NCBI GenBank assembly: GCA_030690305.1 | Contig: JAUYHB010000006.1 | Span: forward strand, 5,668-69,667 | Direction: 5' to 3' | DNA: 64,000 nucleotides | DNA from: a bacterium | GTDB taxonomy: Bacteria; Patescibacteriota; Minisyncoccia; Phycocordibacterales; JAGLPS01 | Shown here: positions 15,542-16,960 of the stretch, one piece after another | Position numbering within the stretch: the first letter of the stretch is position 1 | How the letters are laid out: the number at the start of each line of letters is the position of its first letter | Notes under the pieces: model-generated | What the model was told of the DNA's origin: nothing | Databases searched by the model: none | What the model saw: only the letters and a program-made list of their open reading frames with translations | Position numbers and translations under genes: made by a program

Positions 15542-15614
15542 TGGACACTGAAAATCTGGTCCTGTATAGTCCCCTACAGAAGCACGTTCCAAAAACATAA
15601 CAAAGGAGGTGAAT
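15542..15614 (+). promoter_or_regulatory. Cassette promoter plus strong SD for the orphan kinase-like gene
   Basis: TGGACA-N17-TATAGT (15542-15570); AAAGGAGGT at 15602-15610. Confidence 0.7.
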
Positions 15615-16160
15615 ATGCGTTTTGCGTATGGCTGGAGCCGATGGGTGTTTCTTGTCGGCAATGTTGCAATAAAAATACCGCGTTTAAGACCGCTTCATTG
15701 GATTTCCCGTTTCTTTTTCTGGAAATCTCAGGGAAAATTCACAGAACGGTTTGAGACGCACTTCAAGTGTAATCCCGTTGTAGGAGTATGGAGATACCTG
15801 TGCAACGGTATCATCGCAAACATTGTTGAGCACAGGATTTATCAAAAGCATCCTGACTTACCCATCGCCCCCACGCTCTTTTCTTTTCTCGGTCTTGTAA
15901 ATATTCAAGTCCGGGGAAAACCGCTAGCGGAAAGTTCTCTTCCCAATTGTCCGTTCAGAACCATCGCAAAATTGCATCCCCAATTTGTTGACTTGGCGGA
16001 TATAAGAAATTTTGCGGAGATAAACGGTAAAATTGTCCTTGTAGACTGCGGACCCCAGCACGGATTTCCAACTTTTGAGCAGATACTCCTGACATATAAG
16101 GAACAGGCGCCCGTTTTGTTTTTATCCGGGATAGAACTCCAAAAAAGCCCGCTGTTTTAA
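15615..16160 (+). CDS. Orphan protein with minimal protein-kinase-like motifs
   Basis: VAIKIP (VAIK-like), N..E helix, DL..RNF, LVDCG (DFG-like). Confidence 0.55.
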   Translation: MRFAYGWSRWVFLVGNVAIKIPRLRPLHWISRFFFWKSQGKFTERFETHFKCNPVVGVWRYLCNGIIANIVEHRIYQKHPDLPIAPTLFSFLGLVNIQVRGKPLAESSLPNCPFRTIAKLHPQFVDLADIRNFAEINGKIVLVDCGPQHGFPTFEQILLTYKEQAPVLFLSGIELQKSPLF

Positions 16161-16176
16161 ACAACGGGCTTTTTTT
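16141..16176. terminator. Bidirectional intrinsic terminator
   Basis: AAAAAAGCCCG...CGGGCTTTTTTT between convergent genes. Confidence 0.85.
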
Positions 16177-16189
16177 GTGCGTAATTCGG

Positions 16190-16960
16190 CTATCTGATGT
16201 TACCGATAGAGTTTTTTGCCGTATCGTGCTTTGTTTTCAAAACATTACTTATCGTCTGAAACTTTCCGGCCTGTACCTGAATGGAATTTTCCGCGGTTAC
16301 TTCAATACTTTCTTGCAAGTCGGCTTCGATTGATAACTCAGTGAGTTCCTCGGGAACATAGAAAAAGACGCGATACCAGGGGAATTTCACTTTCACTTTC
16401 GCATCGCTTGAAACGGACACGTTGGTTTTGATTGTTGTGGCAAAAATTCCCAAGAATTTTACAGGTTGTCTGTACTCAACTTCTATGTTGTCTTCGCTTA
16501 CAGTTGCAGATTCCATATTTTCATCCTGAAGAAGCACTCCGCGGGCAAAGTTTTCAAGGTCTTGGCCCGAAGTCAGTTCCACCCTTTCCTTGAGCTGTAA
16601 AAGAAATTCCTCTTTTTGCTTGGGGTCCCATCCTCGGACTTCTATGGCTCGCACACCGACTGATACTGACGTGGTGGATTGATTTGATGAACGCGACGCA
16701 AAATCAATGTCACTTTCATTGTTTTGAAATACCGAGTCGTCGTTTGATTTTTCGGATTCCGTTTCTGTTTCGTTTTCAAACTCCGATTTGCTGGAGACGG
16801 AGGTATTGGCGGATGCTCCGGCACCTGCTCCCGTGTTTGAGGTTTTGACTTGGACCGAACCTGTGCTTGAAACATCAAGCGTCTCCGCTTCCTTTGCCCC
16901 GACGGCACCGGTAAAAGCGACCAGAGATACGATTCCCAAAAATGCGACTAAGTTTTTCAT
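16190..16960 (-). CDS. Secreted protein with embedded VgrG-like and T3SS needle-like peptide motifs
   Basis: Signal peptide, Ser/Thr/Glu-rich linker, motifs VFQNNESDIDFASR, IEVRGWDPKQKE, VKVKFPW, TISNVLKTKHDTAKNSIGNIR. Confidence 0.7.
   Translation of the reverse strand: MKNLVAFLGIVSLVAFTGAVGAKEAETLDVSSTGSVQVKTSNTGAGAGASANTSVSSKSEFENETETESEKSNDDSVFQNNESDIDFASRSSNQSTTSVSVGVRAIEVRGWDPKQKEEFLLQLKERVELTSGQDLENFARGVLLQDENMESATVSEDNIEVEYRQPVKFLGIFATTIKTNVSVSSDAKVKVKFPWYRVFFYVPEELTELSIEADLQESIEVTAENSIQVQAGKFQTISNVLKTKHDTAKNSIGNIR

Follow-up and report, generated by a model that had tools for sequence, protein, structure and literature searches.

The VgrG-related spike hubs of eCIS (NF033848; PF05954, PF04717) are proteins of about 350-600 aa whose signature peptides keep a fixed spacing. 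The 'evolved' Hcp and VgrG fusions of T6SS retain entire domains, and the machine of the same cell loads them. The peptide elf18 is the N-terminus of EF-Tu. NAIP reads the C-termini of needle and rod proteins as linear ligands (PMC13413690), and a non-immunogenic variant of the cold-shock segment csp22 blocks perception in plants (PMC11161748).

The protein P0001, encoded in the 64,000-nucleotide stretch of DNA analysed here (the window), resembles each of these systems in part. With the VgrG-related hubs it shares three signature peptides in the same order, and the hub peptides PEV-x-DEV and GDPDRP also occur in its relatives. However, P0001 has 256 aa, a spacing unlike that of hubs and a signal-like N-terminus, and no machine genes were detected. 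With the needle and inner-rod subunits of T3SS (PF09392, PF17001), here the needle-like protein of the myxobacterial T3SS* cluster, it has the C-terminal 22 residues in common, which are always terminal, but in P0001 this tail alone is present, fused to an unrelated folded core, and no T3SS ring gene was detected in the genome. As in the 'evolved' Hcp and VgrG fusions, machine-derived sequence is joined to other domains, whereas the P0001 family has only pieces of 6-22 aa and no detected machine. In the NAIP and csp22 cases short conserved needle, rod and cold-shock segments are receptor ligands, as is proposed for the P0001 family; in contrast, these are single epitopes in native proteins with animal or plant receptors, and the P0001 family carries many foreign epitopes on one scaffold. 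The parallel with plant epitopes is partial, because the EF-Tu peptides found are not the elf18 one. P0001 would act in the manner of a multi-epitope mimic; it belongs neither to VgrG nor to SctF. No description of the family or of multi-epitope mimic proteins was found in the literature searched.

The features of the locus are collected in Table 1. A contig in two runs that may be the source of the DNA spans the stretch without a break. All four peptides, the signal-like N-terminus and the low-complexity linker described in the sequence-only reading were recovered in the 256-aa ORF, the peptides where that reading had placed them. Residues 4-15 are hydrophobic and no membrane-like segment follows them; the cleavage site of the signal peptide was placed by eye. 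Residues ~22-100 have low confidence in the predicted model and are largely disordered, and the linker (aa 23-100) is poorly conserved in alignment A1, its content varying between homologues. Behind it the model gives a compact alpha/beta domain with pLDDT 84-97 over aa 131-250.

Table 1. Features of the P0001 locus, with positions in the window.
Feature	Position	Strand	Evidence
Strong hairpin between A and T runs	16141..16176	.	-22.3 kcal/mol, z -5.2, 1/200 shuffles
P0001 gene, 256-aa predicted exported multi-peptide display protein	16190..16960	-	ORF
Motif 4, aa 235-256, C-terminal helix like that of myxobacterial T3SS-cluster needle-like protein	16193..16258	-	donor match
Native alpha/beta core, aa 121-232, helices and four-strand meander; scaffold	16265..16600	-	predicted model
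Motif 3, aa 188-195, VgrG OB-fold-type peptide on native core strand	16376..16399	-	16.8 bits, 8/1000 shuffles
Motif 2, aa 106-118, hub VRGWD peptide	16607..16645	-	22.1 bits, 0/1000 shuffles
Low-complexity, largely disordered linker, aa 23-100; variable display region	16661..16894	-	block pLDDT 40-52
Motif 1, aa 76-90, hub Q-x-N-E-S/T-D-x-x-F peptide	16691..16735	-	23.1 bits, 0/1000 shuffles
Predicted Sec signal peptide, aa 1-22	16895..16960	-	hydropathy 2.8 at aa 4-15
Gene for a small membrane protein, 51 aa	16984..17139	-	neighbour of P0001 gene

The hairpin downstream of the gene is likely a bidirectional terminator shared with the convergent ORF 15609-16160, and a simple scan did not list it. 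This convergent ORF (plus strand, 183 aa) has no Pfam or NCBIfam match. On the other side, the gene for a 51-aa membrane protein had been put forward as a partner of P0001. None of the 42 other loci of the family, each covering 1.2-11 kb and some of them short, has this gene, and in the closest homologue, P0002, only the first 12 residues of the 51-aa protein survive, fused in frame. The 51-aa protein has weak look-alikes in the Atlas (0.87-0.89). It is taken as an incidental neighbour, and a partnership with P0001 is not supported. More generally, no neighbour family recurs in more than 5 of 43 loci, antisense shadow frames excepted. The surroundings of the P0001 gene, judged by eye, include a tgt-like gene, a DEAD-box helicase-like gene and rpoBC-like genes.

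The host genome has 0.79 Mb, with 100% completeness and 3.57% contamination. Models of Hcp, the GPD hub, VgrG_rel, SctJ and sheath gave no match over the whole of this genome, and NF033848 gave none at E up to 1, so that, for these models, the absence of injection-machine genes from the window, reported earlier, extends to the genome. P0001 alone among its ORFs combines two or more of the tested vocabulary patterns. One contig of this genome (C30) has a second, divergent EF-Tu gene at its start, where contamination of the bin is possible.

It was asked how well the resemblance to hub proteins holds outside the patterns by which it was noticed. The whole of P0001 found nothing informative in Pfam, NCBIfam and PDB. 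The gp27-like hub models (PF05954, NF033848, TIGR01646) did not match it at E up to 10, the gp5 OB-fold model PF04717 had no match in P0001 and only fragments in relatives, and PF09392 did not match it either. Searched singly, the peptides found nothing of use in Pfam and PDB: five sub-stretches gave no Pfam match (0 of 5; ESAT-6-like matches at E about 0.5 were judged to be chance), and two gave nothing meaningful in PDB. A search for longer proteins with aa 76-120 of P0001, which is a weak test, found none at E up to 10.

Profile comparison was more informative. The first donor set had been selected by motif 2, and therefore a second, independent donor profile was built. It comprises 42 ORFs of 30 Myxococcota loci, which a search with NF033848 had retrieved without use of the motifs. 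When P0001 is scored against this profile in windows of 12 residues, the top three are motifs 1-3, in donor order, and the earlier assignment of motifs 1 and 2 to VgrG hubs is borne out (0 of 1000 shuffles for each). Shuffled controls reach the scores of the peptides rarely or never (0, 0 and 8 of 1000 for motifs 1-3, 0 of 500 for the tail). Among 680 other ORFs of the host genome, the window scores of motifs 1, 2 and 3 were reached by 0, 0 and 10, respectively; against the other donor set motif 3 scored 21.2 bits, with 0 of 1000 shuffles. Motif 2 shares up to 10 of 12 residues with a hub, and motif 3 is identical to hub L153 at 8 of 8. Judged by these scores, motifs 1-3 are signatures of VgrG-related spike-hub proteins of the NF033848 type. 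Among 45 windows of the independent donor profile motif 1 ranks first in conservation, motif 3 fourth and motif 2 14th, a ranking biased towards the 'most conserved' because only conserved donor windows are recognisable as borrowed.

For motif 3 the earlier assignment to the VgrG OB-fold stands in its identity with the hub peptide but not as a purely borrowed piece: the motif overlays a V-x-V-x-x-PW element, a native strand also present in motif-free cores. By this comparison motif 3 is in part the core's own sequence.

A metagenome scan for motif 2 covered 120 loci of about 190, and by BLASTP it returned 101 hubs, 13 members of the P0001 family and 6 others, five of which resemble other patchworks while one is a hub fragment. 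Ten of the motif-2 hubs were checked: NF033848 was the best match in all ten and above cut-off in six. A loose motif-2 pattern also matches unrelated proteins in 14 of 14 viral and 3 of 5 Myxococcota loci. The 14 viral loci (L112-L125) represent one unrelated protein family, which we take to be glycosyltransferase-like, with a chance look-alike of motif 2.

The fourth peptide leads to a different donor. A genome scan with the tail pattern, in the best 80 of 315 stretches, gave 29 members of the P0001 family, 38 Myxococcota and 13 labelled as other groups. A donor search made without the motif, with the first 140 donor residues only, had 35 matches, 30 of which were fetched as loci, and 29 of these 30 end in motif 4. 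The tail of P0001 is identical to those donors at a median of 15 of 22 residues and at up to 19 of 22; it scores 33.2 bits against them. In three motif-poor relatives the tail scores were not above chance. The Myxococcota donor, of about 180 aa, lies upstream of genes for a TPR protein, a FliA-like sigma factor and SctJ, in a cluster which also has an export ATPase, SctU and a rod-like gene; the TPR protein has weak SycD, SctY and CdsG matches.

Of what had been read into motif 4, the match to a gene of myxobacterial T3SS clusters holds, while the needle identity is weak by HMM. Ten of 22 donor tails have a PF09392 match with E no higher than 1 (best 4.6e-4). Over five Myxococcota genomes PF09392 placed the donor gene first in one and second in one and missed it in three, and at the threshold of that genome search 6 of 14 controls matched as well. 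That the donor is a needle protein is weakly supported by these HMM matches. No PDB match was obtained with the donor-tail profile. The corresponding model consists of one helix only, and for this reason no fold search was made with it. The TPR profile retrieved generic TPR proteins in the best 60 of 167 PDB matches.

In a complex prediction, aa 225-256 of P0001 with the myxobacterial TPR protein scored 0.74 and the best of three controls 0.02; the runs agreed in 100% of contacts, with a partner pLDDT of at least 83. The prediction used our own alignments, and its mark is reached by 116 of 157 solved complexes and by 2 of 215 mismatched pairs. The tail is thus predicted to bind a needle-chaperone-like TPR protein. 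The score may come from likeness to solved needle-chaperone complexes, and it therefore speaks for a preserved surface, not for binding. In the monomer model a helix of high confidence forms the tail (pLDDT 94-95 over aa 231-250), so that its binding face may be packed on the core. Moreover, the T3SS TPR chaperone would be cytoplasmic in its owner, so that an exported P0001 may never meet it.

The myxobacterial T3SS* is described as having no needle homologue (PMC10433427, PMC12075869). In Archangium gephyra (L348:17526-20000 with L349:1-303), as well as in L053 and L290-L319, a gene with the needle-like tail stands directly before a CdsG/SctY-like TPR gene. The two genes may belong to the counterpart of the M. 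xanthus T3SS* cluster. At the end of the A. gephyra T3SS cluster lie two tandem small helical genes (L348:3403-4074); some members of the family end instead in a C-terminus that matches the tail of these genes (0 of 200 shuffles). There are also ORFs of 57-82 aa which hold barely more than a leader and a needle-like tail (L043:4905-5078, P0134, P0145, P0149, P0164); where named, they come from Verrucomicrobiota, Devosia and Flavobacterium.

A protein search with P0001 returned 105 homologues, and all those with both the core and a taxon name belong to Patescibacteria. The distribution is patchy: 8 of 60 relatives match, two of the eight weakly, and the core profile matches 21 of 300 genomes of the class. 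A signal-like hydrophobic N-terminus is found in 92 of 101 Met-initiated members and a later membrane-like segment in none, and the family layout is a hydrophobic N-terminus, then a variable disordered linker, then a confident alpha/beta core. The nearest Atlas models to the P0001 core are hypothetical proteins of Minisyncoccota (TM 0.79 and 0.71). Foldseek with the P0001 model found nothing at E up to 0.001. The best VIA matches (Z 7.5, rmsd 5.7, 115 aligned) are RWD-type domains, which lies within the range of common arrangements, and no VgrG, gp27 or Hcp chain is among the 50 VIA matches listed for P0001. The protein P0043 found nothing in PDB.

Motif-free cores exist (L287/L324 and L332). 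In the class search, 11 of 13 other distinct full-core matches carry motifs and 2 do not, the count excluding the window's own gene and one duplicate and the share of motif-bearing matches being biased upward because the core profile was built mostly from such members. Ten weaker matches to the core profile are without any pattern tested; two of them have EF-Tu- or HU-like peptides. In two distant scaffold relatives (L333:964-1755, L341:1-1635) EF-Tu and HU peptides replace the machine peptides. Resolution in the core tree is poor, with strong support for 29 of 86 branches, and because of this no origin or order of gains is claimed for the motifs.

How freely are the peptides arranged on this scaffold? 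As had been suggested, alignment of the homologues gave variable motif slots around a constant core, and 50 motif combinations were counted in 89 proteins. Motifs 1 and 2 are 65-78 aa apart in hubs; in the family the distance is 20-123 aa or the order is inverted, and in P0001 it is about 29 aa. Between motifs 2 and 3 there are 159-177 aa in hubs, 64-91 in the family and about 81 in P0001. Relatives swap in Hcp, tube, inner-rod and EF-Tu peptides; of 16 homologues scanned, 6 have Hcp fragments that exceed the cut-off of Pfam, and the order of these fragments is scrambled. Alternative needle-like tails occur in relatives, as do rod-like ones, for which the signal is weak (in 90 tests, 1-2 of 200 shuffles reached it). 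Certain peptides take the place of core strands or occupy loops, and motif 3 and the Hcp- and tube-like strands replace core strands in place. PKD and FG-GAP-like pieces co-occur, and several recurrent family motifs have no donor among 234 donor loci. The tail motif is fixed in position: in 81 of 84 members of the family its start lies precisely 19 residues before the C-terminus.

At identical residues, codon identity is 0.41 in the tail (28 genes), 0.44 in motif 2 (12 genes) and 0.37 in a core segment, and at the motifs serines switch codon families between genes of Patescibacteria. The motifs are conserved as protein, not as DNA. An explanation by DNA cassettes was rejected, since the codon identity of the motifs is near that of the core at identical residues. 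In L020 an internal repeat has copies differing at 3 of 51 bases, which points to a recent duplicate.

The same vocabulary was met in other phyla. In 11 non-Patescibacteria proteins, chosen for holding a motif, exact peptides in common with the P0001 family were found, and three of them (L031, L036, L039) share further motifs beyond the recruiting motif and acidic repeats. L031 and L036 are Rhs-type proteins of Verrucomicrobiota, and L039 and L030 have Ig-like scaffolds and come from Bacteroidota; motif 2 is also present in L030. The proteins of other phyla add Hcp and EF-Tu pieces (0 of 200 shuffles); for the EF-Tu peptides this result was obtained in L333, L341 and L036. Cold-shock and HU peptides in the wider vocabulary have Pfam E-values of 0.006 and 0.0007, and the cold-shock and tube pieces of the other-phylum proteins are weak Pfam matches on 28-aa stretches. 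In L036 the peptide string fills the C-terminal region behind the Rhs-repeat body.

Both Verrucomicrobiota proteins (L031:3-5321, L036:2826-5084) have a C-terminal string of cold-shock, tube, hub, EF-Tu and needle-like-tail peptides, with more inside the body. A set of Bacteroidota proteins, mostly of 700-1100 aa (L030, L033, L034, L039, L042, L077), holds many peptides of Hcp and of the T3SS cluster, together with unexplained repeated ones; among them are long pieces from the N-terminal part of the needle-like protein of myxobacteria. The carrier genomes tested are mostly without the donor machines: sheath was found in 0 of 12 Patescibacteria carriers and VgrG_rel in 0 of 5 carriers outside Patescibacteria, one of which has a T3SS or flagellar ATPase.

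Several explanations can be weighed against this material. That the resemblance is due to chance is scarcely credible. Loose motif-2 patterns do match unrelated viral and Myxococcota proteins, and the peptides alone find nothing in Pfam or PDB, but the shuffle and proteome controls, the derivation of several motifs from one donor family and the recurrence over about 100 homologues speak against it; chance is refuted for motifs 1, 2 and 4 and stays partly open for motif 3. Equally improbable to a very high degree is a degenerate VgrG or another remnant of an injection machine, in spite of the native order of the three hub motifs and of the family member L167, which matches positions 390-441 of NF033848 with E 2.5e-9. 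None of the VgrG, GPD or OB-fold HMMs matches P0001 at E up to 10, the spacing of its motifs is halved, and in the family variable or inverted, the sequence between the motifs forms a family of its own in which motif-free members exist, the N-terminus is signal-like and no machine genes were found in the genome. A genuine degenerate VgrG, named earlier as the alternative that would overturn the mimicry reading, is thus not what spacing, motif-free cores and HMM searches describe; free spacing, inverted order, swapped peptides and motif-free cores largely refute it. The peptides could also serve an intrinsic property such as folding, metal or surface binding or adhesion, with the scaffold as a sink for captured DNA scraps and no foreign reader. 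The in-place replacement of native core strands by motif 3 and the Hcp- and tube-like strands agrees with this, as do the recent internal duplications (L020) and the co-occurring PKD and FG-GAP-like pieces. However, near-invariant peptides occur both within disordered linkers and, across several phyla, on folds that are unrelated, synonymous sites are saturated and the terminal position is fixed, whereas neutral scraps would decay, and we regard this explanation as distinctly improbable.

Two further possibilities accept a foreign target. The peptides might enter a host or predator and act there as assembly poisons, that is, as dominant-negative spike, tube or needle fragments, or by titrating chaperones. 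They derive from conserved machine segments, and the tail is predicted to fit a CdsG/SctY-like TPR protein, but the signal peptide would route the protein away from cytoplasmic assembly sites, the segments have only 6-22 aa in free order, and the peptides of EF-Tu, HU and cold-shock proteins do not come from machines, so that the wider vocabulary speaks against assembly poisoning as the sole function. This possibility appears improbable to us. Alternatively, the peptide string might be an elicitor raising a false alarm: it would trigger, and not block, the danger sensors or immune sensors of a host, predator or grazer and lead to retreat, self-killing or nutrient release. The vocabulary includes the abundant cytoplasmic proteins EF-Tu, cold-shock and HU, the string of L036 lies in the C-terminal region after an Rhs-repeat body, and needle, rod and cold-shock segments are immune ligands, as cited above. 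Yet P0001 itself has machine-derived peptides only, and the family loci have no conserved partner or immunity gene nearby; we consider an elicitor unlikely, though it deserves to be kept in mind. Decoy and elicitor are not separable from sequence.

The reading which we prefer, and to which we give about an even chance, is that P0001 is a multi-epitope mimic, a decoy occupying foreign peptide-reading proteins of predators, competitors or hosts. The simplest explanation of peptides that are short and invariant, lie in disordered regions and are reused on unrelated folds would be that another organism reads them as ligands. DNA scraps would have been captured into tolerant slots and then duplicated and shuffled. 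The native scaffold, predicted to be exported, would display short copies of injection-machine peptides, and these would occupy foreign readers, chaperones or sensors, whose existence we infer. The binding of such a reader would blunt or misdirect an attack.

A wider proposal is more tentative and in our opinion has rather less than an even chance. Spike, tube, Hcp, needle, rod, EF-Tu and cold-shock peptides may form a weapon and danger vocabulary shared across phyla and read by undiscovered pattern receptors in predatory bacteria, in hosts or in protists, which unarmed bacteria would jam or spoof with shuffled multi-epitope strings borne by unrelated scaffolds, so that microbes would have a natural system of poly-epitope mimicry. 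If these views are true, the proteins list the peptides by which microbes recognise each other's weapons, and they would be ready baits for finding the readers. A needle-like subunit with its chaperone would be indicated in the myxobacterial T3SS*, described as needleless, and Patescibacteria would gain a tangible candidate for a means of manipulating hosts or of defending themselves from predators.
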